Shown here: piece after piece, positions 8,892 to 45,540 of the stretch
Layout: every line of letters begins with the position of its first letter
Position numbering within the stretch: position 1 is the first letter of the stretch
Assembly: GCA_964387845.1 (NCBI GenBank)
Contig: CAYLXA010000005.1
Coordinates: forward strand, 96,001-160,000
DNA: 64,000 nt
Source: an uncultured bacterium
GTDB lineage: Bacteria; Omnitrophota; Omnitrophia; Omnitrophales; Abzuiibacteriaceae
Reading direction: 5' to 3'
The notes under the pieces: generated by a model
Database searches by the model: none
What the model was told of the DNA's origin: nothing
Seen by the model: only the letters and a program-made list of their open reading frames with translations
Program-made: the position numbers and the translations under genes

Positions 8892-10070
8892 TTGATGAAG
8901 ATCAGCGTTCTCATTCCGGCAGCCGGCTCCGGTTCCCGGTTTAAACAAAAGACATCCAAGCTTGAAGCGCTGTTGGGCGGCAAGTCCGTCATCAGCCATT
9001 CGCTTGAGGCTTTCCGCAGCGTGCGCGGTGTCCGGGAAATTGTGATTGCGACACGGCCGAGCTTTAAACCATTTTTGATGGCGCAGGCGAAGCTCTTGAA
9101 GCTCCCGTTTCCGGTCAGAGTCGTCAAAGGCGGAAAAACCAGAGCCGAATCGGTTCACAGAGCGCTTCAAGCCGCATCCAAGCAGTCGGATCATGTTTTG
9201 GTTCACGACGGGGCGCGTCCGCTGGTGAGGCCCGAATGGATTCAAAAGCTCATTCGAAGCATGAACGGTTCTGATGGCGCTGTTTTGGGCCGCGCGGCGG
9301 TTCCCACGATCAAACGGTTTGATCCCAAAAGCGGAGAAATTTTGGAAACGGTGAATCGTGCGACACTTTTTGAAGCCGAAACACCGCAATTTTTTAGAAA
9401 ATCAGCCCTCGAGCAAGCTTATAAAGCCTTGGGTGTTCGGGCCTATCACGCAACCGACGATGCGTCTCTCGTGGAGTTTGCAGGCGGCAGCGTAAAAGCC
9501 TTTTGCCATGAAGGTTCTAATTTAAAAATTACAACAACCGATGATTTGAAACTAGCGCACCACATGATGCCTCAGTCACAAGATTTATTCCGGTTCGGGC
9601 TCGGGTTTGATCGTCACCGCTTGGCGGCGGGGCGCCCGTTTTATTTAGGCGGCATAAGGCTCAAAGCCGATTTTGGCCCTGTCGGTCATTCGGACGGCGA
9701 TCCGCTTCTGCATGCCATTATTGACGGTATGCTGGGCGCGCTTGGCCTGGGTGATATCGGCGACTTTTTTCCGGATTCAAGCGCGCGCTTCAAAAATATC
9801 AAAAGCGTTGTCCTGGCGAAAAAGGCTCTCAAATTGATCCGATCGAAAGGCTTCGACGTTTATCAAATCGACGGAACCGTGATTTTGGACCGTCCCAAAT
9901 TAGGCGCGCATAAGAAAAAAATCTGTATGAATTTATCGAAGATTTTCAATCTTCCGGTCTCGAAAGTAAGCTGCAAGGCCAAAACTTCGGAAGGCGTGGG
10001 CCCCGAGAAAATGAACCAGGCCGTTTCTGCCGAAGCGCTGGTGGTGCTTTGCGCGCGAGGCGAGTCATGA
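8892..10070 (+). CDS. ispDF: Bifunctional IspD/IspF (MEP cytidylyltransferase / MEcPP synthase)
   Basis: The N-terminus 'ISVLIPAAGSGSRF' matches IspD. The C-terminal half 'FRFGLGFDRHRL...GHSDGDPLLHAIIDGMLGA' matches IspF. Confidence 0.9.
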   Translation: MMKISVLIPAAGSGSRFKQKTSKLEALLGGKSVISHSLEAFRSVRGVREIVIATRPSFKPFLMAQAKLLKLPFPVRVVKGGKTRAESVHRALQAASKQSDHVLVHDGARPLVRPEWIQKLIRSMNGSDGAVLGRAAVPTIKRFDPKSGEILETVNRATLFEAETPQFFRKSALEQAYKALGVRAYHATDDASLVEFAGGSVKAFCHEGSNLKITTTDDLKLAHHMMPQSQDLFRFGLGFDRHRLAAGRPFYLGGIRLKADFGPVGHSDGDPLLHAIIDGMLGALGLGDIGDFFPDSSARFKNIKSVVLAKKALKLIRSKGFDVYQIDGTVILDRPKLGAHKKKICMNLSKIFNLPVSKVSCKAKTSEGVGPEKMNQAVSAEALVVLCARGES

Positions 10071-11515
10071 GCGGCGCACGTGTCCGGTTTGCGCCGTCTC
10101 CGACGGGCATGCTCCACATAGGCAATATCCGCACGGCGCTTTTCAATTTTCTTTATGCGCGCCATACGAGCGGCAAATTTATTTTAAGAATCGAAGACAC
10201 TGACCCCGAGCGTTCGAAACAGGAATTTGCCGACGCGATCATGAAAGACCTCGAAAAGTTGGGGCTTCAGTGGGACGAAGGCCCGGTTTATCAGTCGAAG
10301 CGCTTCGATATTTATTCGGAGCATTTGAAAAAACTCCGCGAGCAGGGAAAAGTGTACGAATGTTACTGCTCGGAGCAGGAACTCGCCGCGCGGCGAAAAG
10401 AAGCGATGATCGCCAAGCGCGCCCCGCGCTACGACAGCCGGTGCCGGACGATTTCAAAAGCAGAAATTGATAAAAAGAAAGCGGAAGGCATTAAACCCAC
10501 GATCCGGTTTAAAGTTGAGGAAACAAAACCGATTTTGGTTCAGGATTTAATCCGCGGTGATGTGCATTTTCCGCCGGAGGAAATCGGCGACTTTGTTATT
10601 ATGCGCACGAATCCGGACAAGCCGGGCGAATTTATCCCGACTTTCCATATGTCGGTCTGTGTTGATGACGGTTTGATGAAGGTGTCGCACATCATCCGCG
10701 GGGAAGATCATCTGTCCAATTCGCCGCGCCATATCCTTCTTTTTCAGGCGTTTGGCTTTGAGGTGCCGAAATTTGCGCATTTGTCGCTTATTCACGGCCC
10801 GGGCGGCGAGCCTTTGTCGAAACGGCTGACGTCTGTGAGCGTCCGGGATTTTGTTGATGTTCAAGGATATCTCAAGGACGCGCTCTTGAATTATTTGGCG
10901 CTTCTCGGCTGGTCGCCGAAGGATAACCGAGAAATTTTGAACCTTCCGGAGCTGATTCGCGAGTTTGAAGTCGCCAATTGCATCAAGCATCCGGCGATTT
11001 TTAATCCCGAAAAGCTGGATTGGGTGAACGCCGAACATCTTCGGAAAATTCCTGAAAATGATTACATTGAACACGCCGCCGCATTTTTAAAGGCCGGCGG
11101 TGATCGTGCAAAACCGTTTTTCACAAACGCGGTGTTTCTCGACAAAAGCCTTCTGCTGGTCCGTAACGACATTCACAAGTTTGAAGATTTGTGGGAACGG
11201 CTCAGTTTCCTGAAAGAACCCGACCTGAAAGGGATGCCCGATGACGCCAAAGCAATTTGGAGCCAGCCGGAAACCAAAACGGTTCTTCAGTGCGCGGTTT
11301 CCGGGTTTTCGGACGTGAAATCACAGGGCGAAATTTTCTTTGATGATTTGACGAAATTTGTAAAAGACAAAACACAGGTCAAAGGAAAGTCGCTTTTTAT
11401 GCCGATCCGGATTGCGATGACCGGCCAGATTCACGGCCCCGAGATGAAAAAAGTGTTCGGTATTTTTGACCGCGCGACCATTCAAAAACGTTTCGAAACC
11501 GCACTCAAATCCTAA
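10067..11515 (+). CDS. gltX: Glutamyl-tRNA synthetase
   Basis: The class I HIGH region 'SPTGMLHIGNIRTA' and a KMSKS-like 'LSKR' are present. Start taken at the ATG that overlaps the ispDF stop (ATGA). Confidence 0.9.
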   Translation: MSGARVRFAPSPTGMLHIGNIRTALFNFLYARHTSGKFILRIEDTDPERSKQEFADAIMKDLEKLGLQWDEGPVYQSKRFDIYSEHLKKLREQGKVYECYCSEQELAARRKEAMIAKRAPRYDSRCRTISKAEIDKKKAEGIKPTIRFKVEETKPILVQDLIRGDVHFPPEEIGDFVIMRTNPDKPGEFIPTFHMSVCVDDGLMKVSHIIRGEDHLSNSPRHILLFQAFGFEVPKFAHLSLIHGPGGEPLSKRLTSVSVRDFVDVQGYLKDALLNYLALLGWSPKDNREILNLPELIREFEVANCIKHPAIFNPEKLDWVNAEHLRKIPENDYIEHAAAFLKAGGDRAKPFFTNAVFLDKSLLLVRNDIHKFEDLWERLSFLKEPDLKGMPDDAKAIWSQPETKTVLQCAVSGFSDVKSQGEIFFDDLTKFVKDKTQVKGKSLFMPIRIAMTGQIHGPEMKKVFGIFDRATIQKRFETALKS

Positions 11516-11516
11516 A

Positions 11517-12914
11517 ATGGCGCTTCAATTATTCAACACCTTGAGCGGCAAGAAGGAAGAGTTCAGGCCGCTCAATCCGCCCGAAGTCCGGATGTATACC
11601 TGCGGGCCCACCGTTTACGACTTTGCGCACATCGGGAATTTCAGGACATACGTTTTTCAGGATGTGCTCAAGCGCTACCTTGATTTCAGCGGTTTTAAAG
11701 TCCGGCATGTGATGAATATTACGGATGTGGATGACAAAACCATCGCGGGCGCTAATCAGAAGAAGGTTCCGCTTGAGGAATTTACCAAAGTATTTACGCA
11801 AGCGTTTCACGATGACCTCAAAACGCTCGAAATCCTGCCGCCTGATGAAGAGCTGTTTGCCACAAAAACCATTCCGCAAATGCTTCAAATGATTGCGGAA
11901 CTTGTGAAGAAAAACCATGCTTATGAAAAAGACGGTTCGGTATATTTCCGCGTGGCCAGTTTCGCGAATTACGGAAAATTATCGAAGAAAAATCTGGAGA
12001 AAAATATTGCCGGTGCCCGCGTCGATGTGGATGAATACGAAAAAGAAGAAGCGACCGATTTTGTGCTGTGGAAAAAAGCAAAAGAAAATGAACCTTCCTG
12101 GGATTCGCCTTGGGGAAAGGGGCGGCCCGGCTGGCACATTGAATGTTCGGCGATGAGTTTGTCAGCTTTTCAGAATGAAACACTCGACATCCACACGGGC
12201 GGTGAAGATCTCGTATTTCCGCATCATGAAAATGAAATCGCGCAGTCGGAATCGACGACCGGAAAAAAGTTCGTTCATTACTGGCTTCATGCCAAACATT
12301 TATTGGTAGACGGCGAAAAAATGTCGAAATCAAAAGGTAATTTTTTTACCTTGCGTGATCTTCTGAAAAAAAATCTCGATGCGGCTGCTATTCGCTACGC
12401 ACTTTTATCAACCCATTACCGCAAGCAGCTCAATTTCACAGTTGACGGCGTCCAAGCGGCGCGGCAAGCCTTAAACCGCGTGCGCGATTTTCACACCAAT
12501 ATCGATGTCCTGGAGGTCGACAACGCAAAATCGGGCGGTGCGGTGTCTGATTTGGTGCGCGGTGCCCAAAAGGCCGTCCAGGCGGCCATGGACGATGATT
12601 TAAACGTGTCTGAAGCGCTTGGTGCAATTTTTGAGATGGTCAAGCGCTTGAATGCGCTTTCCTTGAAGAAAATCGGCCGGCAGGAAAAAACCGAGCTGGA
12701 TGTTTTCTTTCAAAACATGAACCAGATTTTCGGCGTGTTTCATTTTGAAGAAGAAATCCCGGCCGACATTCATGAGCTGGTCGAAAAACGCCAGGAAGCC
12801 AGGACAAAAAAGGATTTTAAAGAATCCGATAAAATCCGCGATTTGCTCAAGCAAAAAGGTTTCGTCGTTGAAGACACGGCCGGTTCTGCCGTCAAGATTA
12901 AAAGAATCAAATGA
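11517..12914 (+). CDS. cysS: Cysteinyl-tRNA synthetase
   Basis: '[17 protein letters not shown]' and the 'KMSKSKGN' motif. Start at '[11 protein letters not shown]', directly after the gltX stop. Confidence 0.9.
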
Positions 12915-17593: not shown

Positions 17594-17667
17594 GCTTCAA
17601 GCTGCAGGCTGCAAGCCACAAGCTTAAAGCTTTTAGCCTGGAGCCTGAGGCTTGTAGCTTGTAGCAA
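17593..17667. repeat. REP-like GC-rich palindromic repeat, copy A
   Basis: 'gagcttcaagctgcaggctgcaagcc...gcctgaggcttgtagcttgtagc' is built from gcttg(a/t)agc / ctgcagc units. Related copies occur at 35.6, 37.6 and 45.5 kb. Confidence 0.6.
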
Positions 17668-27592: not shown

Positions 27593-29251
<1,659 letters not shown>

Positions 29252-29700: not shown

Positions 29701-29715
29701 ACTTTGAGGTGTGAT

Positions 29716-31350
29716 ATGCCCGCAAAAGAATTAACTTATTCAGAGGAAGTACGCGCCAAGATTAAAAAAGGCGTCGATATCCTCGCCAAGACCGTCAGTG
29801 TCACCTTGGGGCCGCGCGGCCGCAATGTGGTGCTTGACCGCAAGTTCGGTTCTCCCTTAATCACCAAAGACGGCGTCACCGTCGCGAAAGAAATTGACCT
29901 TGAGGATCCGTATGAAAATATGGGTGCTCAGATGGTCCGCGAAGTGGCTGAGAAAACATCAGATGAAGCCGGTGACGGAACCACCACCGCGACGGTTCTC
30001 GCGCAAGCGATCGTCTCGGAAGGTGTCAAGAATGTCACAGCCGGCGCCAATCCGATGGCCCTTAAGCGCGGAATCGATAAAGCCGCGGCGGCCGTCATTG
30101 AATCCATCAAGAAATTAGCGTCTCCGATTAAAGGCAAAGAAGAAATCAAGGCCATCGCTACGATCAGTGCCAACAACGACAGCGTGATCGGCCAGCTTTT
30201 GTCGGATGCGATGGAAAAAGTCGGCAAAGACGGCGTCATCACGGTCGAAGAATCCAGCACCACCAAGACGGAGCTCGAAGTCGTCGAAGGTATGCAGTTT
30301 GACCGCGGTTACATTTCGCCTTATTTCATCACCGACGCGGACCGGATGGAAGTCGTCCTCAAGGATCCCTTGATTCTCATTTACGAAAAGAAGATTTCTT
30401 CCGTAAAAGAAGTCGCCCCGCTCCTCGAGCAGGTAGTCGGCATTGGAGCGCCGCTTCTATTAATCTGCGAAGAAGTCGAAGGCGAAGCGCTTGCCGTTCT
30501 CGTCGTGAATAAAATCCGCGGAACGTTCCAGGCAGCAGCCATCAAGGCGCCCGGATTCGGCGACCGCAGGAAAGCCATGCTCGAAGACATCGCGATTTTA
30601 ACGGGCGGCAAATTCATTTCCGAAGACATCGGTGTGAAGCTCGAAAATGTGGATCTTTCGATGCTCGGAAAAGCCAAGCGTGTTGTGATCGATAAAGACA
30701 ACACCACGATCATTGACGGCGCCGGTAAAAAAGCGGCCGTGAAAGAGCGTTGTGAACTTATTAAGAAACAAATCGATAAATCAGATTCCAGCTACGACAA
30801 AGAAAAACTCCAGGAACGCCTCGCGAAGCTTTCAGGCGGTGTGGCGTTGATTAAAGTCGGTGCTACGACTGAAACCGAAATGAAAGAGAAAAAAGCGCGC
30901 GTGGAAGATGCGTTTCATGCCACAAAAGCATCCGTCGAAGAAGGTGTGGTCGCGGGAGGCGGTGTGGCGCTCGTTCGTTCATTGAAAGCGCTTGATTCTC
31001 TGAAGCTGGAAGGCGACGAGAAGGTGGGTGCCGAAATCATCCGCCGCGCGATCCAAGAACCGCTCCGTAAGATCGCGTCCAACGCGGGTTTCGATGCGTC
31101 TGTCGTGATCGGCAAGGTTCTGGAAGAGAAGGGCAACTTCGGCTTTAACGCTTATTCAGGCGAATACGGCGACTTAGTGGAGCAGGGAATTATTGATCCT
31201 GCAAAAGTGGTCCGCAAAGCGCTCGAGAATGCGTCAAGCATCGCGGGTTTGATTCTCACCACCGAAACCGGCATCGTCGAAAAGCCGAAAGACAAGGACG
31301 AAGAAAAGTCGAAGAAGAAAAATTCTTCACACGCTGGGCATTCTCATTAA
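29716..31350 (+). CDS. groEL: Chaperonin GroEL, copy 2 (with His-rich tail)
   Basis: A full Cpn60 paralogue. Its C-terminus is '[18 protein letters not shown]' instead of GGM repeats. Start taken at 'MPAKELTY'. Confidence 0.9.
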
Positions 31351-31453: not shown

Positions 31454-32485
31454 TCAGCTCAAGCCCGCTTCGAACGACAACGTTTCTCGCTTCAATTCCT
31501 TTCGCAATTCTTTTTCCGTAGGCAGGTATAACTTATACTTTGACGCAAAGATTTGCTTACTTCCTTTCGGAAGCGTGTAGCGTACGACCGCTTCCTTCTT
31601 ATCCTCGCACAAAATAAGGCCCACTGTCGGCTGGTCGGTTTTTTGTTTCAACTCGCGGTCATAGTAATTCACATACATTTGCATTTGACCGATGTCTTGA
31701 TGAGTTAGTTTTCCGATTTTCAAATCAATCAGCACAAAGCACCTGAGCAGCGTGTTATAGAAAACCAGATCGATATAGAAATGATCCCCATCAAGTGTGA
31801 TCCTTTTCTGCCGGGCGACAAACGTAAATCCTTTTCCCAGCTCGAGCAAGAACTTGGAAAGATTATCAATCAGCGCTTGCTCCAGTTTGCTTTCATACAG
31901 CTTCGGGTTGGATTCAAGGCCGGTAAATTCCAGAACGTACGGATCTTTAATCATGTCCGTGTAAGTTCGAAGGTCCTGGCCTTTCTTGGCTAATTTGAAG
32001 AGCCCTTTCTTATCTTTGCTTAAAGAAAGCCGTTCAAAAAGCAGGGAACCCTTTTGACGCTCCAATTCCCGGACTGACCAATTGTTTTTGACACATTCAA
32101 TTTCATAAAAGGAGCGTGCCTCCGGTCGTTCGACGCGCATTAAAATCCGGTAATGTGTCCAGCTCAATTCGTGACGCAGTGCGTCACGAATTGGGAAGGT
32201 AAGATAAAACTGACGAATATATCGCAAATTCGAATCATCAAAGCCTCTCCCAAAATCTCTTGTTAGTTTTTCCGAAAGCGACTTCAATAACGTCTCACCG
32301 TAAGTGGCACGTTTTTGGCCTTTTTGTTCTTCTTCCACAATTTCACGGCCGATTAACCAATAGGCCTGCACCATTTCGGTGTTGACGGTACGCGCAATGT
32401 TGGAACGTGCCGATTCTATGATCTGACGGATTTTGGAATAGACTTGGTCTTGCTTTGAGTTTTTCTTTTGAACTTCTTGCGGCAT
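31454..32485 (-). CDS. DUF1016 / YhcG-like PDDEXK nuclease-domain protein
   Basis: '...ARTVNTEMVQAYWLIGREIVEEEQ...' has the YhcG/DUF1016 architecture, with an N-terminal helical part and a C-terminal PD-(D/E)xK-like part. Confidence 0.7.
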   Translation of the reverse strand: MPQEVQKKNSKQDQVYSKIRQIIESARSNIARTVNTEMVQAYWLIGREIVEEEQKGQKRATYGETLLKSLSEKLTRDFGRGFDDSNLRYIRQFYLTFPIRDALRHELSWTHYRILMRVERPEARSFYEIECVKNNWSVRELERQKGSLLFERLSLSKDKKGLFKLAKKGQDLRTYTDMIKDPYVLEFTGLESNPKLYESKLEQALIDNLSKFLLELGKGFTFVARQKRITLDGDHFYIDLVFYNTLLRCFVLIDLKIGKLTHQDIGQMQMYVNYYDRELKQKTDQPTVGLILCEDKKEAVVRYTLPKGSKQIFASKYKLYLPTEKELRKELKRETLSFEAGLS

Positions 32486-32814
32486 GAGTAATTTGCCCTC
32501 CCTTTTTTGGTAGCCCTTCCGCCTTTTGGCTTCAGGACGATGCTTCTAACTGCGTGAAGCATCGGGCAAATCACTTAATGTGGTGTCTTTATGCGATGAT
32601 CGCAACCCTGTCCCAGCGCCACTTTGAAACAAAAACTTGTTTCTAATCAAAGCGCTGGACTGGACTCATTTCCTATAGACCGAACGGTTCCATTAATGAA
32701 AATGAGTCCTGGTACTGCTTGATGCGAGAGTGAAGGATATCATATGTCCGGTCCGTATCAAAATGATTTTTTTCAGTTAAATTAATCCCGAAAGGGTATA
32801 TTTTATTAATTCGA

Positions 32815-32918
32815 GTTAAATATTATACCTTATAAGGTATAATATTTTTAAATTATACCAAAAAAGGTATAATATTTTACTAAAGTAGTTGATATTATAC
32901 CCTTAATGGTATACTATT
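32815..32918 (+). promoter_or_regulatory. Three TATACC-N5/6-GGTATA operator palindromes upstream of hipB
   Basis: 'tataccttataaggtata', 'tataccaaaaaaggtata' and 'tatacccttaatggtata'. The third overlaps the first in-frame ATG. Confidence 0.6.
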
Positions 32919-32923
32919 CTGCC

Positions 32924-33145
32924 ATGGATTACATTGGAGAAGAAATTCAAAATTTGCGTAAAAGAGCAGGGCTCACTCAACGAGAATTCGCGAAGCGAGT
33001 GGGTGTGGGGCTTAGATTTATTCGTGATCTTGAACAAGGAAAATCTACCGTACGGCTTGATAAGGTAAATCAGGTGCTTGAATTTTTAGGGCATCATTTG
33101 GAGATTGTTGCCAACCGTGAACGAAAAAATATTCAGAAAAGCTAG
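32924..33145 (+). CDS. hipB: XRE-family HTH protein, HipB-like
   Basis: 'LRKRAGLTQREFAKRVGVGLRFIRDLEQGK' is a Cro/C1-type HTH. It is the first gene of a three-gene hip operon. Confidence 0.75.
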   Translation: MDYIGEEIQNLRKRAGLTQREFAKRVGVGLRFIRDLEQGKSTVRLDKVNQVLEFLGHHLEIVANRERKNIQKS

Positions 33146-33461
33146 AGTTAACTACAAAGATGAACTTGCCGGTTATTTACAAGAAACCGAGAATGGTTTT
33201 CAATTTCTGTATGATGAAAATTATTTGCGTTCCGGCGGACAGCCAATTTCTGTGTCACTTCCTTTAACGAATGAGCCTTACGAATCAAAAGAGCTTTTTA
33301 GTTTCTTCCGCGGACTTTTGCCGGAAGGTTGGTACCTCGATATCGTGAGTGCGGCTAAGAAAATCGATACCAATGATTCTTTCGGCCTGCTTCTGGCTAC
33401 CACAGGCGACACGATCGGCGCAGTGACCGTATATCCAATCCGGGAAAGCGATGAGTCCTAA
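33117..33461 (+). CDS. hipS: HipS-like protein (stand-alone HipA N-terminal subdomain)
   Basis: About 115 aa, similar to HipA N-terminal subdomain 1. The start is uncertain (GTG at 33117 or TTG at 33105). It overlaps the next gene by 11 nt. Confidence 0.6.
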   Translation: MNEKIFRKARVNYKDELAGYLQETENGFQFLYDENYLRSGGQPISVSLPLTNEPYESKELFSFFRGLLPEGWYLDIVSAAKKIDTNDSFGLLLATTGDTIGAVTVYPIRESDES

Positions 33462-34311
33462 TCTGTTTGAAGAAATGTTTGGCACGAGCGAAGCTCCTAC
33501 AATCCCACTTTCGTTGAAGGATGTTCCTCTTCAAGCGCAAGTGATGGCGGGGTATATGTCCATTTCAGGGGTGCAGCCAAAATTGGTGCTGAAATTGGAT
33601 AAGCGTAAAAATGAGCTGACGGTGGCTCAGACGGATGGTGAATATATTTTAAAACCGCAAATCCCGCATTTCCCCCAGACGCCCGAAAATGAAAACTGCT
33701 GTATGGATATCGCTCAGGCGTTTGAGATTGAGGTGCCGCCCCATTGCCTTCTTCCACTGAAAGACGGAAGCCTGGCTTATGCGGTGAAGCGTTTCGATCG
33801 TGTGAGCGGCGAAAAAATCAATCAAGAAAGCTTTTATCAAATTCTTGAAAAAAGAGACAAATATATGGGCTCTCTGGAACAAATCGGTAACAGCCTGAAA
33901 CAAATTTCCGTAGTGCCGGGCCTGGATGTTCAGCTTTTCTTTGAATTAGTCGTTTTCAATTTTCTGATCGGCAATGGTGACGCGCATTTTAAAAATTACT
34001 CCATTTCTTATTTAAAGGATGGCATCCGGCTTTCTCCGGCCTATGATCTGGTTTGTTCCAAGCTGGTGATTCCGGGCGATTCGGATTCCGCACTCACGAT
34101 CAATGGCAAGAAGAATAATCTTAGGCGGGGCGATTTTGATGTGTTGGCTGCTTATTTAAAAATTCCGGAAAAGGTTCGTTACGATAAGTTTGCAGGTCAG
34201 CTTGGAAAAATGGAGCAATTGATTCGAGCCAGCCAACTCTCGGCAGATTTTAAAAAGACGTTTATTCAAATAGTTTCTTCACGTTTTGATCGGCTTAAAT
34301 TGGTGAATTAA
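33451..34311 (+). CDS. hipT: HipT-like Ser/Thr kinase toxin (HipA C-terminal kinase domain)
   Basis: 'LIGNGDAHFKNYSI' is the catalytic motif and 'SPAYDLVCS' is also present. At 286 aa it lacks the HipA N-terminal subdomain, which is supplied separately. Confidence 0.7.
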   Translation: MSPNLFEEMFGTSEAPTIPLSLKDVPLQAQVMAGYMSISGVQPKLVLKLDKRKNELTVAQTDGEYILKPQIPHFPQTPENENCCMDIAQAFEIEVPPHCLLPLKDGSLAYAVKRFDRVSGEKINQESFYQILEKRDKYMGSLEQIGNSLKQISVVPGLDVQLFFELVVFNFLIGNGDAHFKNYSISYLKDGIRLSPAYDLVCSKLVIPGDSDSALTINGKKNNLRRGDFDVLAAYLKIPEKVRYDKFAGQLGKMEQLIRASQLSADFKKTFIQIVSSRFDRLKLVN

Positions 34312-35595: not shown

Positions 35596-35633
35596 GGCTT
35601 GAAGCTTGAAGCTTGTAGCCTGCAGCCCACAAT
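35596..35633. repeat. REP-like repeat, copy B
   Basis: 'ggcttgaagcttgaagcttgtagcctgcagcc'. Confidence 0.6.
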
Positions 35634-36020
35634 CCTATCCGCCGAGCCTTACCCCTTACCCCTAAGTTTCAATCTGGACACAAAGCTTTTTGAGGCATAA
35701 ATCCTACTTAAATTGTGCCTGTACCTGTCCACCAAAATGATGCCTGGCACCTTTCTGTTAAGGATTCATATGCAACTCCTTTTTCCTGTAACATCAGGAT
35801 ATCAGGTGTTGCACTAGTAACTTGAACTCAAGCAGGTACCGAAGTAGAAATCCACTTCCTATCCGCTATACGTTGTTCGCGAACCAATAAAATAGTTGTT
35901 GAAATATAATATAAAGATTGTAAAATAATTACCTCACGCAAACAGTAAACCCCTCTCACGCCTTCACGCGCAAAATCAAACTAATTTCGTAATGCGTTCA
36001 CAAGAAAGGCGGATTTGCCA

Positions 36021-36809
36021 ATGAAAAAAGAAAAACTCATTTCTCAGAGGGATGGTTTACCAATTCGTTCAAGCGGTCCTTGGATCCGCAAAAAACATCA
36101 CTATTTAATCAGATATGCTGACATATTTACCCGAGGGATGAAGAACAAATGGGAATTGACGTACCTTGATCTTTTTGCCGGGCCCGGATGCTGCTTAATT
36201 GAGAAAGAGATGATCGAATTAGCCGGATCTCCGTTACTTGCATTAGGTTTTGATTTTAGGAAATACATTTTTATTGAACAGGATCATGATGACCTTGAAG
36301 CATTGAAACAGCGGTGCTCAAAATCACCAAAACTAAGCCAGATTCAATTCATAGAAGGGGATTGTAATAAGAATATTGATCAAATTCGATTGACGGGATT
36401 AACGCTGGCTTTTATCGATCCAACTGGTATTGACGTTCATTTTGAAACGATTAAACGACTCACCTCTTTAGGGCCGGTGGACCTGCTAATAAACATACCA
36501 TTTCACATTGATATCAAGCGCAACTTCACGAAGTATATAAAAACCCAACATAAAAAATTGGATCTCTTTCTTGGCGGTAAGGTACCGTGGGATAAATTGC
36601 ATCAAGAAAGGGATGTTTTAGAGTTATACAAAAAGCGAATAAAGGATTTGGGGTATCAAACCGTAGAATACAGCGACATAGTTGTCAGTAATACAAACAA
36701 AGTTCCTATGTACTTTCTTTTCTTTGCGTCCAAGCATTCGCGTGGTGTAGAATTCTGGAAGAAAATTACCAAGAAAGACGAAACCGGACAACTGGAGTTA
36801 GAACTCTAA
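36021..36809 (+). CDS. Three-Cys-motif partner protein TcmP family (MTase-like fold)
   Basis: '[11 protein letters not shown]' resembles SAM-binding motif I. 'FIDPTG' sits in the place of a DPPY-like motif. The gene is adjacent to a Gp37/Gp68 (DUF5131) gene, which is the defining context of TcmP. Confidence 0.6.
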
Positions 36810-36811
36810 GA

Positions 36812-37570
36812 ATGAGCGATAAATCAAATATCGAATGGACCGACGCGACATGGAATCCGGTAACGGGATGCAATAAAATCAGCCCCGGATGTAAAAACTG
36901 CTACGCCGAAACTTTCGCTGAGCGCTGGCGGGGAATTCCGGGCCATCCCTACGAACAGGGTTTTGACCTCAGATTATGGCCTGAGCGTGTCGGCTTGCCA
37001 TTATCGTGGAAAGAGCCGCGGATGATTTTTGTCAATTCCATGTCTGATCTTTTTCATAAAGATGTTCCGGATGACTTTATAGGGAAAGTATTTGAAACGA
37101 TGCTCAAAGCTAATCAGCATACTTTCCAGGTTCTGACCAAGCGGCCTGAGCGCATGGTTGAATGGACCAAGAAAACATTCGGCAATCAAAAATTACCGCG
37201 TCATATCTGGCTTGGTGTTTCGGTTGAAAACCAGGATTACGTATGGCGAATCATGTATCTTCAGCAAACACCGGCTCAAATCCGTTTTCTTTCGGTTGAG
37301 CCTCTTTTGGGGCCTGTTGTTTTAAAATCTTCAAATTTAAAAGGCATTCATTGGGTGATCGTGGGTGGCGAGAGCGGACACAGAGCCCGTCCTATGAATC
37401 CCGACTGGGCGCGTGATATCCGCAATCAATGCGAAAAATATGGCGTCGCTTTTTTCTTCAAACAATGGGGCGCTTTTAACGCGAAAGGCGAACGCGTTGG
37501 TAAAAAAGCCGCCGGCCGGGTTCTCGACCGCAGAACCTGGAACGAAATGCCAATTACAATCCCCGCCTAG
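36812..37570 (+). CDS. Phage Gp37/Gp68 family protein (DUF5131), three-Cys motif
   Basis: The N-terminus '[27 protein letters not shown]' is the family signature and includes a CX6CX2C motif. Confidence 0.7.
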
Positions 37571-37596
37571 AATCCATCTCTCGTGGTTTAAACGAG

Positions 37597-37625
37597 AAGC
37601 TTGTAGCCTGTAGCTTGCAGCTTAT
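37597..37625. repeat. REP-like repeat, copy C
   Basis: 'gaagcttgtagcctgtagcttgcagc'. Confidence 0.55.
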
Positions 37626-37744
37626 CATCATGATATAATTCCTATCGCGACGGCGCCCACATTGACCGCCGCGTGATGGCACTTGCGCCAGCGTTACCGC
37701 AGGTGCCTGCGAACGAAGTGACGCAGAATAAAGCGCAAGTGTCT

Positions 37745-38092
37745 ATGTCCGACATCAAGAAACTCACCGAAAAGATCAAGCAATTCCGCGACGAACGGGA
37801 TTGGAAGCAATTCCACAACCACAAAGATATGGCACTTTCACTTGTTCTTGAAGCCGCTGAACTTTTAGAACATTTCCAGTGGAAAACATTGGATGAAGTT
37901 GAAAAGCACGTGAAAACCTCAAAAGAGGATGTTTCAGATGAGCTTGGCGATGTCGCGATCTATCTTTTCGAGCTCGCCGATAACTTAGGGATAGACCTAT
38001 CAGAAGCGGTAGAAAGCAAGCTTCTTAAGAATGCCAGAAAATATCCTATACAAAAATCTAAAGGCACCATAACCAAGTACAATCAATTGTAA
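37745..38092 (+). CDS. MazG-like nucleotide pyrophosphohydrolase (all-alpha NTP-PPase)
   Basis: 'ERDWKQFHNHKDMALSLVLEAAELLEHFQWK...ELGDVAIYLFELAD' is the MazG/dCTPase-like EExxE/D signature. Confidence 0.7.
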   Translation: MSDIKKLTEKIKQFRDERDWKQFHNHKDMALSLVLEAAELLEHFQWKTLDEVEKHVKTSKEDVSDELGDVAIYLFELADNLGIDLSEAVESKLLKNARKYPIQKSKGTITKYNQL

Positions 38093-38099
38093 AGATTAA

Positions 38100-38876
38100 A
38101 TGCCCGGCAATGAATCTGCAGTAATAAAGTATTTGTTCAGAAATAAGAATCGTCTCGAGTTACCTCATTTAGGTTTAATAAAATCAATTGGGTTTCCAAA
38201 TGGACTCACAAATAACTACAAAGAAATAAAAAATGAAAATGAAATTTTAGAATGTTGCTCAGACAATGCTCGAAAAAAAGCAGATGTCTATATTAATGGG
38301 CAAGGCGTATCAATAAAACAATCAGGAGGAAGTTTTTCTTTTAATCGTTTGCAGCGTGCCGAGTTAATAGAAGTTTTTGCTAGTTTAATTTTTGATGCCC
38401 CTCATAATGTTTTAACTCAATTAGATAAAGAAGTTGAAAAATTTCATTTTGGAAAATTATCAGGACGTGGTAGGCCGTGGAAAGATTTTTTCTCAAATAA
38501 AGAATTTTATGCTTTAACAAATGCTCTTATGATGTTGCAATCTCCAAATTATGGACTTTCTCTTCATCCCGCTAAATTTATTCTGGAGGCTTCAAAAAAT
38601 TTAACAACCAATCCGAGTTTAAAAGTTTATACTTTTGATGAATATTTTGAACGTTATAACGAGTTTTTCAGGATTGCTATAAGACGTGTTTGGTTGGGGC
38701 AGAATAGTAAATCTGAGCATGGCCGTGCAAAAAGTCTAATAGCAAAACCTGAGAATGCAACCTGGGTCTTTAATACAATTTCCGGAACGCCAAGAAGTGG
38801 TTGGAAAGTTGATTTTCCAAAGTCGGAAAGAAGAACTGTGTATTATTTGATGATAGAAAAAGTAAATTCAAAATGA
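38100..38876 (+). CDS. Hypothetical protein, putative type II restriction endonuclease by context
   Basis: Very AT-rich, with no family recognised. It directly precedes vsr and overlaps it by 4 nt, upstream of the dcm-type methyltransferase. Confidence 0.4.
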   Translation: MPGNESAVIKYLFRNKNRLELPHLGLIKSIGFPNGLTNNYKEIKNENEILECCSDNARKKADVYINGQGVSIKQSGGSFSFNRLQRAELIEVFASLIFDAPHNVLTQLDKEVEKFHFGKLSGRGRPWKDFFSNKEFYALTNALMMLQSPNYGLSLHPAKFILEASKNLTTNPSLKVYTFDEYFERYNEFFRIAIRRVWLGQNSKSEHGRAKSLIAKPENATWVFNTISGTPRSGWKVDFPKSERRTVYYLMIEKVNSK

Positions 38877-39301
38877 CATTTGTATTTCAAACGACAAGTC
38901 AACGCTCCGAGTTAATGAAAAAGATTAAAGGAGTTAACACTAAGCCAGAAATTGCTTTTGCAAAGAAACTTGAATTATACAAAGTCAAGTTTAGAAAACA
39001 TTTTAAAAAACTCCCTGGAGTACCGGATTTTGCTATTTTGAGAGGTAGAGTAGCGGTGTTTATCGATGGGGAGTTTTGGCATGGATACAATTGGGTTAAT
39101 AAAAAGAAAAGGATAAGATCCAACCGACAATACTGGATTAAAAAAATAGAAAGAAATATACTAAGAGATTCGATAAATATGAGAGAATTAAAGAAAATAG
39201 GTTGGTATCCTTTAAGATTTTGGCAGCATGAAGTTGTTGCTGAGGGTGATAAATGTATAAAGAAAATCGAAAAAATAATGCAGCGACGAAGTTCAAAATA
39301 G
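38873..39301 (+). CDS. vsr: Very-short-patch-repair endonuclease
   Basis: 'KPEIAFAKKL...PGVPDFAILRGRVAVFIDGEFWHG'. Confidence 0.85.
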   Translation: MTFVFQTTSQRSELMKKIKGVNTKPEIAFAKKLELYKVKFRKHFKKLPGVPDFAILRGRVAVFIDGEFWHGYNWVNKKKRIRSNRQYWIKKIERNILRDSINMRELKKIGWYPLRFWQHEVVAEGDKCIKKIEKIMQRRSSK

Positions 39302-40383
39302 CATCTTTTTTTGCTGGCTGTGGCGGCCTAGATTTAGGTTTCCAGCAAGCGGGCTTTGATGTTGTTTGGGCAAATGAATACGATAAAACAATTTGGGCTA
39401 CCTACGAACACAACCATCCTCATACGTTTTTATGCAAGAAATCTATTATCGATGTCAAATCAGATGAAATTCCAACTGTTGTTGGCATGATAGGTGGCCC
39501 GCCATGCCAAAGCTGGAGTTTAGCCGGAGCCATGAGGGGAGTAAAAGACCCGCGAGGTAAACTTTTTTATGAATACATAAGAATCTTGGCCGATAAACAA
39601 CCATCATTTTTCTTAGCCGAAAATGTTGCGGGCATTGTTTCTAGCACTCATGTGAATTCATTTGAAAATATCCTTAAAAAATTCGAAGAAATTGGTTACG
39701 TTACTTCATATAAATTGCTTGATGCAAAATCCTACGGCGTTCCTCAGGATCGGAAAAGAGTTATCATTGTAGGGTATTCTAAAGGTTTACATAAGAAATT
39801 TGAATTCCCGCAAGAAACTCATGGTGTAAATTCAGCGAATGGCGACTTATTCAAGCCACATTTAAAACCCTATGAAACTTTACGCTCTGCAATTGACGAT
39901 TTGCCTAATCCGGTGCCTGCTAGTTTGAAAAATAAGTCGAACAGCAGAATTCGTATTCCAAATCACGAATATATGACAGGAGGTTTTTCTACCATTTACA
40001 TGTCACGAAATAGGAGAAGAAATTGGAATGAGCCTTCATTTACAATTCAGGCGGGAGGCCGGCATGCACCGCTACATCCATCAAGCACTGAAATGATTAA
40101 AAAAGAGCCAGATTGGTGGGTATTTAAAAAGAAAGACAAAAAGGCTTATCGGCGAATGTCGGTAAGAGAATGCGCACGAGTTCAAACCTTCCCTGATAAA
40201 TTCATATTCAAATATGATTCAATTGCGGATGGTTATAAAATGGTTGGTAATGCAGTTCCCGTCGAGTTGGCGCGTGTTATAGCATTAAGAATAAAGTCAG
40301 ATTTGATACCAGAGAAAAATAATCTTAAAAGATCATCCCTTCGCAAAACACCCTATTCCGAATTGGTGTTAGCTTCCTCATAA
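39253..40383 (+). CDS. dcm: DNA (cytosine-5)-methyltransferase
   Basis: Motif I 'FAGCGGLDLGF', motif IV 'GGPPCQSWS' and 'ENV'. The start is uncertain and overlaps the vsr 3' end. Confidence 0.9.
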   Translation: MYKENRKNNAATKFKIASFFAGCGGLDLGFQQAGFDVVWANEYDKTIWATYEHNHPHTFLCKKSIIDVKSDEIPTVVGMIGGPPCQSWSLAGAMRGVKDPRGKLFYEYIRILADKQPSFFLAENVAGIVSSTHVNSFENILKKFEEIGYVTSYKLLDAKSYGVPQDRKRVIIVGYSKGLHKKFEFPQETHGVNSANGDLFKPHLKPYETLRSAIDDLPNPVPASLKNKSNSRIRIPNHEYMTGGFSTIYMSRNRRRNWNEPSFTIQAGGRHAPLHPSSTEMIKKEPDWWVFKKKDKKAYRRMSVRECARVQTFPDKFIFKYDSIADGYKMVGNAVPVELARVIALRIKSDLIPEKNNLKRSSLRKTPYSELVLASS

Positions 40384-40424
40384 ACCGTAAACTGGACACC
40401 GTCCGGCAGAAAAAAGGTTGTTGA

Positions 40425-41540
40425 ATGAGGCAAATATTCATAGTAGTGGCAGGAGGCAATGCTGCTGCTGATCGTCACTTCGAAGATACAATCCAACGTA
40501 AACGTACCTTAGATGAAGTGCGGCAATTTCTATCTTCCCAAGAAATTCATGAGATCGAATCAGTTTATCATACAGCACCTTTTATTGTCTGGGGCGCTAT
40601 TCCCGGCCCAATGAATATTCCGCGTTGGCAAAGTATGCGTGTTGGCGATATTGTTTTGATTTACACAAGAGGACATATCCGATTAATTGGCGAAGTGGCA
40701 TCAAAAGTAAGAAGTAATTCGTTGGCTCGCTATTTTTGGAAAGAAACACCCGAAAACAAAACCTGGGAATTGATTTATTTTATTGTAAATGAACAAAGGG
40801 TAAATATACCGATGCCTTTATTAAATGAAGCGCTTGGTTATAGCGCAAGTTACTCTCCGAGGGGATTTAGTTCTGTCGATTCTGATAAGGTCAAATCATT
40901 CGTTAATCGTTATGGCGATATATTCGAAGGGCTTAAAACACTCAGTAAAGGCGAGAAACTAATCGAAATTTCGCCAGCGAAAAAGTTAGAAGTCCAACAG
41001 GTTGAAGAAAAGATTGAACAATCATCGAATGAGCATGACGAAATGCAATGGCGGTTAATTAGATTGGGCAAATTGTCAAGGTACGATGTTTGGGTTCCCA
41101 GAAATGATCAAGGGCACAGCTTTGGAGGTCAACGATTTCGGGATTTTGTGTTGCCGGAATTCCACGAGAGTTTAGATGTTCCACCCAGTATTAAAAATAT
41201 CGATGTCGTGTGGAAATTTGGTCCTTATTCGATCACATCTGCATTTGAAGTCGAACATTCAACATCCGTTTATTCAGGAATTTTAAGGCTTTCGGATCTG
41301 AGAACCGAAACACCGAATTCACAATACCCACTTTTTATTGTTGCTGACGAAGCAAGAAAGCGGAAGGTATTTTCGGAACTTGCGCGCCCCACTTTCTCAA
41401 ATCCCTTTTTGCGACTTCACGAAGTAATACGATTTTTGAGTTACGAAAGAATCAGGGACATTGATGAAAAGTATAAGCAAGAACCTGAATTTGAACCGCA
41501 AATACTCTTTACTGCCGGAGAAACTTTCGAGAAAAATTAA
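40425..41540 (+). CDS. PUA/EVE-like N-terminal domain fused to a putative PD-(D/E)xK nuclease. Candidate modification-dependent (type IV-like) restriction enzyme.
   Basis: The N-terminus 'VGDIVLIYTRGHIRLIGEV' is EVE/PUA-like. The C-terminus 'IDVVWKFGP...AFEVEHS' is (D/E)xK-like. Confidence 0.5.
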   Translation: MRQIFIVVAGGNAAADRHFEDTIQRKRTLDEVRQFLSSQEIHEIESVYHTAPFIVWGAIPGPMNIPRWQSMRVGDIVLIYTRGHIRLIGEVASKVRSNSLARYFWKETPENKTWELIYFIVNEQRVNIPMPLLNEALGYSASYSPRGFSSVDSDKVKSFVNRYGDIFEGLKTLSKGEKLIEISPAKKLEVQQVEEKIEQSSNEHDEMQWRLIRLGKLSRYDVWVPRNDQGHSFGGQRFRDFVLPEFHESLDVPPSIKNIDVVWKFGPYSITSAFEVEHSTSVYSGILRLSDLRTETPNSQYPLFIVADEARKRKVFSELARPTFSNPFLRLHEVIRFLSYERIRDIDEKYKQEPEFEPQILFTAGETFEKN

Positions 41541-45469: not shown

Positions 45470-45540
45470 GGCTTCATGCTGCATGCTACAAGTTACAAGC
45501 TGCAGGTTTGAAGCTTGGAGCCTGAAGCCTGTAGCTTTGA
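45470..45540. repeat. REP-like repeat, copy D
   Basis: 'gcttcatgctgcatgctacaagttacaagctgcaggtttgaagcttggagcctgaagcctgtagc'. Confidence 0.55.

Follow-up and report, generated by a model that had tools for sequence, protein, structure and literature searches.

A TcmP-DUF5131 gene pair in an Omnitrophota genome: a candidate SAM-dependent module for nucleic-acid modification

Introduction

A 64,000-nucleotide stretch of contig CAYLXA010000005.1 (assembly GCA_964387845.1, an uncultured bacterium of the Omnitrophota), below called the window, contains a gene for a three-Cys-motif partner (TcmP), directly followed by a gene of the phage Gp37/Gp68 family (DUF5131) and, after a repeat, by a gene for a MazG-like nucleoside triphosphate (NTP) pyrophosphohydrolase. 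What do the first two proteins act on, and does the third act with them? A first-pass annotation, made from the sequence alone, had proposed that all three form a nucleic-acid- or nucleotide-directed modification or defence module. The three open reading frames (ORFs) are present and intact, Table 1.

The pairing of TcmP with DUF5131 is real and functionally uncharacterised, as had been stated, and it is conserved across TcmP loci. It is not an unrecognised system, as it is already catalogued: NCBIfam TIGR04474 is named for the pairing, and PADLOC has it as the candidates PDC-M41 and PDC-M30. New here is a sharpened hypothesis, with an RlmJ-like constant partner, a swappable radical S-adenosylmethionine (SAM) enzyme of the spore photoproduct lyase (SPL) clade, and natural fusions of the two. 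The best explanation that we can offer, held tentatively and with somewhat less than even confidence, is a mobile module of two enzymes that consumes SAM, modifies a base in a nucleic acid (probably DNA) and serves in conflict with phages or mobile elements. The MazG-like gene is not part of this module.

Results and discussion

TcmP has an obligate and exchangeable partner

The window's TcmP is identical to the database protein P0001 (an alternative start is TTG 36015), and its best match among species representatives has 64% identity. Hidden Markov model searches, as suggested in the first-pass annotation, bear out both family assignments. TcmP matches TIGR04474 with 136.9 bits (cutoff 53), with residues 22-255 on model positions 1-262 of 263, and has no match to a Pfam or PHROG family. 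The DUF5131 protein covers the complete Pfam model PF07505 (349 bits, cutoff 28.9; model positions 1-243 of 243) and also matches phrog_2045 (2.4e-107).

The TcmP family is large. At 50% identity it makes up 5,836 clusters (E <= 1e-3), 3,072 of them at 1e-10 or better, and it is found in many bacterial phyla, archaea and phages. We sampled 80 TcmP loci, each from another GTDB species, from Omnitrophota, Planctomycetota, Zixibacteria, Acidobacteriota, Dehalococcoidia, Patescibacteria, Bathyarchaeia, Alpha- and Betaproteobacteria. At nearly all the loci with enough flanking sequence a protein with three N-terminal cysteines abuts TcmP, mostly on the same strand.

The partners were classified at 75 loci, 11 of which have no assigned partner. 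About 40 loci have a DUF5131 protein of about 250 amino acids (aa) with a CX6CX2C motif. About 11 loci, plus one fusion, have an SPL-like protein (CX3CX2C, 320-350 aa), four have a PA0069/Rv2578c-like protein (CX3CX2C, about 305 aa) and eight a Radical_SAM-positive protein (CX3CX3C, 255-290 aa). According to Pfam and NCBIfam, the partners other than DUF5131 belong to the Radical_SAM, SPL, PA0069/Rv2578c and rSAM_mob_pairB-like families. In a neighbour-joining tree of TcmP, which carries no support values, the partner types are interleaved, and TcmPs that are 52-57% identical to the window's have three different partner subfamilies. In at least two lineages TcmP and an SPL-like domain are fused into one protein (L045, 606 aa, at 10001-11821, and P0246, 634 aa). 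TcmP is an obligate partner of SPL-clade radical SAM proteins, and four subfamilies of these are exchanged beside closely related TcmPs. In the window 2 bp separate the TcmP stop from the DUF5131 start; the two genes are translationally coupled.

Two variations of TcmP itself were seen. An N-terminal Cys-rich, zinc-ribbon-like extension is present in P0246 and in several unfused TcmPs (e.g. L093 and P0106-P0116). Burkholderia-type loci (L067 7858-10819; also L068, L069, L078, L079 and L083) contain a DUF5131 gene (+), a 421-aa TcmP on the opposite strand and a further TcmP (+). The 421-aa protein has a C-terminal GMT-like winged helix-turn-helix (wHTH) domain and corresponds to PADLOC PDC-M30A.

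The pair is also found in viruses, with a TcmP-like gene directly abutting in 24 of the best 80 IMG/VR DUF5131 loci. In isolate phages DUF5131 is present in 175 of 50,697 records, including the family namesakes Che9c gp68 and phiE125 gp37, mostly without a recognisable TcmP. The commonest neighbours of the pair on (pro)viral contigs are CI-like repressors and integrases, and in Gordonia phage BaxterFox the TcmP-like gene 42 adjoins the immunity repressor, next to a convergent, unannotated DUF5131 ORF. Defence module and prophage, which had been set against each other, are a false contrast, since lysogeny modules of prophages often contain the pair as well. The BaxterFox ORF encodes 342 aa (DUF5131, E 1.5e-89) at ~31921-32949 (+) of KU963263, i.e. 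L086 3960-4988 (-), where the record has three small genes (39-41) annotated on the opposite strand instead. We rejected the idea of ordinary phage replication or structural accessory proteins: both proteins are enzymes by fold and occur outside phages.

The DUF5131 protein is predicted to be a radical SAM enzyme

The N-terminal block I-E-W-T..T-W-N-P..T-G-C20-x6-C27-x2-C30-Y-A is invariant in 41 DUF5131 homologues. Its three cysteines had been read as a possible metal or Fe-S site, and this can now be sharpened to the predicted [4Fe-4S] motif of a radical SAM enzyme. The spacing is CX6CX2C, compared with CX3CX2C in canonical radical SAM proteins. When DUF5131 is compared by hhalign with the canonical radical SAM partners of TcmP, the two align over 196 columns (probability 91.7%, E 7.9e-7), and the Cys triad falls on GC-x3-C-x2-CY with a three-residue insertion. 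RadicalSAM.org places DUF5131 in the radical SAM subgroup Megacluster-5-2, beside SPL in 5-3 (PMC9477430). The NCBIfam model "radical SAM mobile pair protein A" is matched in part (9e-18), at a score well under its cutoff.

The AlphaFold2 model of DUF5131 is of moderate quality, with a predicted local distance difference test (pLDDT) of 73.6. It is good over the beta/alpha core, which shows the partial (beta/alpha)6 TIM barrel of the radical SAM superfamily, and the nearest solved fold is SPL. The structural check proposed for the pair gave a confident methyltransferase fold for TcmP (see below), but for DUF5131 the model is poor at the three-Cys region, residues 1-55, where the cluster is predicted to bind. 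We accept the predicted assignment of DUF5131 to the radical SAM enzymes of the SPL clade. It is a relative of SPL and not a member of that family, because the window's protein matches neither of the SPL models (PF20903, TIGR04070) in Pfam or NCBIfam.

TcmP is RlmJ-like in its predicted fold

TcmP was modelled by AlphaFold2 from 40 homologues with high confidence (pLDDT 91.6, predicted template-modelling score 0.90). The model has a Rossmann-like class I SAM-methyltransferase fold with motif I (D/E-x-x-x-G-x-G). The nearest solved structure is RlmJ, a ribosomal RNA (rRNA) N6-methyladenine (m6A) methyltransferase, and the best structural matches are the RNA methyltransferases RlmJ, Trm1, TrmR, CmoA and TYW2. 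Profile searches of the PDB with TcmP and with DUF5131 gave nothing up to an E-value of 10.

Both motifs pointed out in the first-pass annotation, DLFAGPG and FIDPTG, are present. The residues D50, G54, P55 and G56 of motif I and D133, P134 and T135 of IDPTG are invariant in the 40 homologues. The motif IV position reads D133-P134-T135-G136 in TcmP and IDPPYE in RlmJ, i.e. TcmP lacks the (D/N)PP(Y/F) of the amino-methyltransferases. TcmP is not a classical amino-methyltransferase, because the DPPY position reads DPTG.

By inspection, RlmJ and TcmP have the same order of elements. Both start with an N-terminal helix with a conserved lysine (K18 in RlmJ, K25 in TcmP), and share an acidic residue at the end of beta-2. 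The remaining elements pair as YLDTHAGAG with YLDLFAGPG, YPGSPL with LAGSPL, and ILIDPPYE with AFIDPTGI, RlmJ first. According to our model, TcmP is RlmJ-like in fold and layout, and the SAM-binding motif is retained. The many invariant polar residues (D11, R16, W21, K25, Y32, D50, S70, D133, T135, N168, Y231 and Q257) suggest an enzyme more than a scaffold.

Neighbourhoods of the pair

Enrichment near defence genes had been named as a check on the idea, and close to the window's clade the neighbourhoods are more of the defence and mobile-element kind. Among the well-annotated contexts in and around that clade, eight of nine are beside restriction-modification (RM), toxin-antitoxin (TA) or abortive infection (Abi) genes or in a mobile element. 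Apart from the window, these are a conjugative element with a LexA-like gene 5' of the pair (L001), a locus with two methyltransferases 5' (L008), and five loci with the following gene orders: lexA, phospholipase D nuclease, pair, AbiEi (L091); lexA, DpnI, pair (L094); TA (RelE), pair, SLFN-like helicase with S24 peptidase, SRA-HNH, with PD-(D/E)XK also at the locus (L090); TA (HicAB), Fic, pair, SLFN-like helicase with S24 peptidase (L092); and RadC, HsdM-like, HsdS, TcmP, SPL-like, with no HsdR (L093). In Sinorhizobium meliloti a TcmP gene is, by locus tag, near the defence gene Hna and is co-regulated with it.

The helicase found directly 3' of the pair in L090 (9833-12915) and L092 (8844-11192) is a protein of ~790 aa, similar to SLFN group 3 and combined with a LexA-type S24 peptidase. 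In Acidobacteria the TcmP-SPL-like pair is inserted inside a translesion-synthesis cassette.

A proposed mechanism and its alternatives

We propose that TcmP and its radical SAM partner would act as one machine on a nucleic-acid base, most likely in DNA. TcmP would bind the polymer and flip the target base into an RlmJ-like pocket, where it would then either transfer a group from SAM or simply present the base. The partner would cleave a second SAM to a 5'-deoxyadenosyl radical, and this radical would abstract a hydrogen from the base, or from the new substituent, to give a different modification. SAM would be used stoichiometrically. In the window the module would be the cargo of a defence and TA island, marking or altering DNA in defence or self-protection, as candidate PDC-M41. 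The novel part of the proposal is that a methyltransferase-fold protein may flip and prime the base, while an interchangeable radical SAM "warhead" would convert it.

A nucleic-acid target is suggested by the solved structures closest in fold, which for TcmP are RlmJ and Trm1 and for its partner SPL. DNA is favoured because the SPL-clade enzymes with known substrates, SPL and gp53 of phage M6 (PMC8989533), act on DNA, because the pair is embedded in DNA-methylation-based systems, and because it adjoins DNA-damage genes. SAM consumption is suggested by five Dehalococcoidia loci, where the pair is located between MtnA-like and methylthioadenosine (MTA)-phosphorylase-like genes, i.e. flanked by genes for 5'-deoxyadenosine/MTA salvage.

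Several points weigh against this explanation. Across the family the defence character of the neighbourhoods is modest: over the 80 TcmP loci the immediate neighbours are heterogeneous, include DNA-damage and housekeeping genes, and are defence-like in only about 8-10 of 140 cases (among them type IIG RM, type II methyltransferases, mad2 and a HamB-like helicase). The likeness of TcmP to RlmJ is structural only, as the sequence similarity is not significant: hhalign gives a probability of 1.3% with motif I alone aligned, and local alignment scores are within the shuffled range. The family is also present in aerobes and their phages, although radical SAM chemistry is oxygen-sensitive. In the literature searched we found no published protection test of PDC-M41 or PDC-M30, and for DUF5131, TcmP, PDC-M41/M30 and Rv2734 only listings, the radical SAM classification and one transcriptome. 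For every family member the substrate, product and phenotype are inferred. The other opposing points come from neighbours involved in DNA damage and in RNA modification, and each of the two groups has its own alternative explanation.

In the first alternative the pair would serve DNA repair or damage tolerance. The SPL-clade enzyme would directly reverse a DNA lesion, for example one of the photoproduct-like or alkyl kind, independently of oxygen. TcmP would recognise and flip the damaged base, and for mobile elements and phages the module would be a protection of the DNA that is their own. Among solved folds SPL is the closest, and several TcmP partners match the SPL Pfam model. In five Acidobacteria loci (L027, L029, L031, L032 and L070) the pair has a Y-family polymerase 5' and a DnaE2-like Pol III alpha 3'; these loci belong to one lineage, however, and may represent a single event. 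LexA is located directly 5' of the pair in L001, L091 and L094, but in L091 and L094 it is the host lexA beside the suf operon, followed by variable nuclease genes, which looks like an insertion hotspot. Further, no LexA-type operator was found to be shared between the lexA promoters of L091, L094 and L001 and the TcmP upstream regions, including the GTTCGCGAAC palindrome of the window. Helicases with an S24 peptidase are found 3' of the pair in L090 and L092, the window's pair is near Vsr, the repair gene that accompanies Dcm, and in Mycobacterium tuberculosis a transcriptome shows Rv2734, described as similar to gp37 in the phiE125 record, to be induced together with recA and recX by mitomycin C. 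However, SPL acts alone, and repair gives no reason for a conserved methyltransferase-like partner that would bind SAM and carries many invariant polar residues. The flanking salvage genes also suggest stoichiometric use of SAM, while its use in SPL is catalytic. Overall, we consider repair rather unlikely.

The second alternative is RNA modification, in which TcmP would be an enzyme of the methyltransferase type for transfer RNA (tRNA) or rRNA, and its radical SAM partner would perform a second step on the same nucleotide, as Trm5 and then TYW1 do in wybutosine synthesis. In Zixibacteria (L033, L035) and Planctomycetales (L013) the pair directly adjoins the gene for MnmA, a tRNA 2-thiouridylase, and this adjacency in two phyla points to RNA together with the structural matches of TcmP, which are to RNA methyltransferases. 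Some loci are also found among housekeeping genes. On the other side, the pair occurs patchily and on mobile carriers (islands, prophages, conjugative elements), and core enzymes of RNA modification do not typically swap partners or reside in low-GC islands. RM-type loci have the pair embedded in them repeatedly, and the SPL-clade enzymes of known substrate act on DNA. This makes an RNA target quite improbable in our view.

A third possibility is a restriction-like effector, in which the radical SAM enzyme would abstract hydrogen and so damage unmarked foreign DNA, and TcmP would read the methylation state of the base. The change from DPPY to DPTG could make a writer into a reader, in L093 TcmP and the SPL-like gene follow HsdM-like and HsdS genes in a locus without HsdR, and methyl-dependent nucleases are nearby in L094 (DpnI) and L090 (SRA-HNH). 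There is, however, no precedent for such an effector, the idea is purely inferential with a single RM-like architecture as its basis, and the effector would be toxic in the housekeeping contexts of Dehalococcoidia and Acidobacteria. We think it very unlikely.

We continue to favour, with the reservation stated above, a two-enzyme module that modifies a base. Its outcome may be a protective mark, an offensive lesion or repair. If the proposal is true, islands, conjugative elements and prophages would carry a new epigenetic self-mark or a radical-based restriction. Very few radical SAM enzymes are known to have DNA as their substrate: a paper from 2021 named only two, SPL and a phage isomerase of hypermodification (PMC8989533). 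The pair could, though we consider this rather doubtful, be the first system of cells in which radical chemistry writes, or destroys, a modification of a DNA base. TcmP and its radical SAM partner are a clonable two-gene candidate for a new radical chemistry directed at DNA, be it in conflict between microbes and their elements or in repair, and the constant TcmP, the variable partner and the natural fusions give a clear experimental handle.

The MazG-like gene lies outside the module

The first-pass annotation had counted the MazG-like protein as a member of the module. MazG folds occur in phage-host nucleotide conflicts, and in a three-gene system the MazG-like protein would deplete or clean the nucleotide pool. 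A profile search found a MazG-like gene near TcmP in three independent loci of about 90, namely the window, L016/L090 and L092. The two other genes are highly similar to the window's and their loci belong to the same TcmP clade, but they are on the 5' side of TcmP, at 0.9 kb in L016/L090 and at 4 kb, behind HicAB and Fic, in L092, and in both the radical SAM partner is PA0069-like. Thus both the side and the distance vary. None of the other ~85 TcmP loci has the gene, nor has any of the 80 viral DUF5131 loci, and the protein has no PADLOC match. The MazG-like gene is not part of the TcmP-DUF5131 module.

In the window, the spacing assigns the gene to the operon downstream. It probably starts at ATG 37745 (115 aa), since its homologues have 115-118 aa; upstream alternatives are GTG 37673 and ATG 37676. 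The gap after DUF5131 measures 102 bp if the earliest start, 37673, is used and 174 bp if ATG 37745 is. It contains a REP-like repeat copy, which separates two transcription units, and a promoter-like TGnTATAAT element. The copy that had been reported before the MazG-like gene is thus real. On the other side, a gap of 7 bp follows the MazG-like stop before orf258; orf258 overlaps Vsr, and Vsr in turn Dcm. The MazG-like gene is probably the first gene of this orf258-Vsr-Dcm operon, where the protein may clear modified dCTP (5-methyl-dCTP) for the Dcm operon, a role that would fit it better. A system of three genes is hardly credible.

The complete segment at 37745-41540 contains the MazG-like gene, orf258 (no family match), Vsr, Dcm and orf371, with gaps of at most 7 bp or overlaps up to Dcm; orf371 has a weak match to a type II restriction endonuclease (REase), 8e-10. 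It looks like one 5-methylcytosine RM operon in which Vsr, and possibly MazG as a second gene, would be responsible for "damage control".

The island in the window

The pair and the MazG-like gene are located inside a 13-kb island of RM and TA genes with low GC (0.33-0.45, compared with ~0.49), bordered by tandem groEL genes on one side and guaB-like/guaA on the other. It contains YhcG/DUF1016, a helix-turn-helix (HTH) protein with a split HipA, a DUF6036 nucleotidyltransferase, the TcmP-DUF5131 pair, the MazG-like gene, orf258, Vsr, Dcm, the REase-like ORF, MNT-HEPN and a Gp49/HigB-type TA pair. No phage structural gene, integrase or tRNA was found in the island or marking its borders, in agreement with the earlier description of an RM and TA island free of phage structural genes.

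The heptamer-periodic repeat AAGCTTGTAGCCTGYAGC has 13 matches at four intergenic sites of the window, compared with 0.05 expected by chance, and a periodicity of 7 bp. Two of the four sites bracket the TcmP-DUF5131 pair, Table 1. At the sites at 17.6 kb and 45.5 kb the repeat is present on both strands.

Other genes of the region are also listed in Table 1. One representative of PDC-S02, the PADLOC candidate that the YhcG/DUF1016 protein matches, gave no phage protection in a cold-seep study. The layout of the HTH and HipA ORFs is that of a tripartite HipBST-type TA rather than a two-gene hipBA; the alternative is a frameshifted hipA.

Table 1. Positions of the pair and of neighbouring features in the window.
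Feature	Position	Strand	Remarks
TcmP ORF	36021..36809	+	262 aa, ATG start, intact
DUF5131 (Gp37/Gp68) ORF	36812..37570	+	252 aa, intact
MazG-like all-alpha NTP pyrophosphohydrolase ORF	37745..38092	+	PF12643, E 7.5e-21; intact
Promoter-like site TTGAAA-16-TAAAAT	35899..35926	+	10/12 consensus matches, ~95 bp 5' of TcmP; a consensus match alone, the regional count of such sites being not above shuffled expectation
REP-like heptamer-periodic repeat, 5' of the pair	35602..35626	+	intergenic; AAGCTTGTAGCCTGYAGC site
REP-like repeat copy between DUF5131 and MazG-like gene	37597..37621	+	intergenic; AAGCTTGTAGCCTGYAGC site
Promoter-like TGnTATAAT element	~37632-37641		3' of the REP copy; read from sequence
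AAGCTTGTAGCCTGYAGC repeat site	17601-17665		intergenic
AAGCTTGTAGCCTGYAGC repeat site	45478-45535		intergenic
Tandem Cpn60/GroEL gene, first	27611-29251		directly 5' of the low-GC island
Tandem Cpn60/GroEL gene, second	29704-31350		directly 5' of the low-GC island; His-rich C-terminal tail
YhcG/DUF1016 PD-(D/E)XK protein	31454-32485	-	match to PADLOC candidate PDC-S02, 1e-151
HTH protein (79 aa), HipA N-terminal-domain protein (118 aa), HipA C-terminal kinase-domain protein (286 aa)	32906-34311		separate, overlapping ORFs

Comparison with known systems

The closest known systems are PDC-M41 and PDC-M30. The window's proteins match M41A (7.7e-27), M41B (9.2e-106) and M30B (7e-103), and their genes are adjacent, as the system definition requires. 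PADLOC defines its PDCs as genes found repeatedly embedded within RM, BREX, DISARM or Hma loci ("guilt-by-embedding"), an origin that fits the island context of the window. The PDC-M30A protein of the Burkholderia loci differs, as it is a longer TcmP with a C-terminal wHTH domain that the window's TcmP does not have. PDC-M30 has merely been counted in Pseudomonas aeruginosa panels.

Compared with SplB (PF20903/TIGR04070), the window's DUF5131 protein is about 90 aa shorter, has its CX6CX2C motif at the extreme N-terminus and matches no SPL model. SPL needs no methyltransferase-like partner, whereas the DUF5131 type of the window always has one. RlmJ, which methylates 23S rRNA (m6A2030), and its Legionella homologue 2oo3 have DPPY where TcmP has DPTG, and share no significant sequence similarity with it. 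According to our own reading of the sequence, TcmP also lacks the helical insertion after motif I. Unlike TcmP, RlmJ is a solitary enzyme encoded by a core gene.

Phage M6 gp53 is an SPL-like radical SAM isomerase of thymidine hypermodification, which remodels a DNA-base substituent after replication (PMC8989533). It is described as related to SPL, and it shows that the clade can write DNA modifications. The partners of gp53 are different (a kinase, an aGPT-Pplase and a pyridoxal phosphate enzyme), and it acts on bases derived from 5-hydroxymethyldeoxyuridine in a lytic phage.

Finally, the radical SAM "mobile pair" A/B (TIGR04471/TIGR04470) also consists of SPL-clade radical SAM genes that travel as a pair on mobile elements. 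DUF5131 has its partial match (9e-18) to pairA and other TcmP partners have one to pairB, but the scores are far below the equivalog cutoffs (64 compared with 355 bits). In the mobile pair both partners are radical SAM proteins, whereas the TcmP pair has one methyltransferase-like partner.

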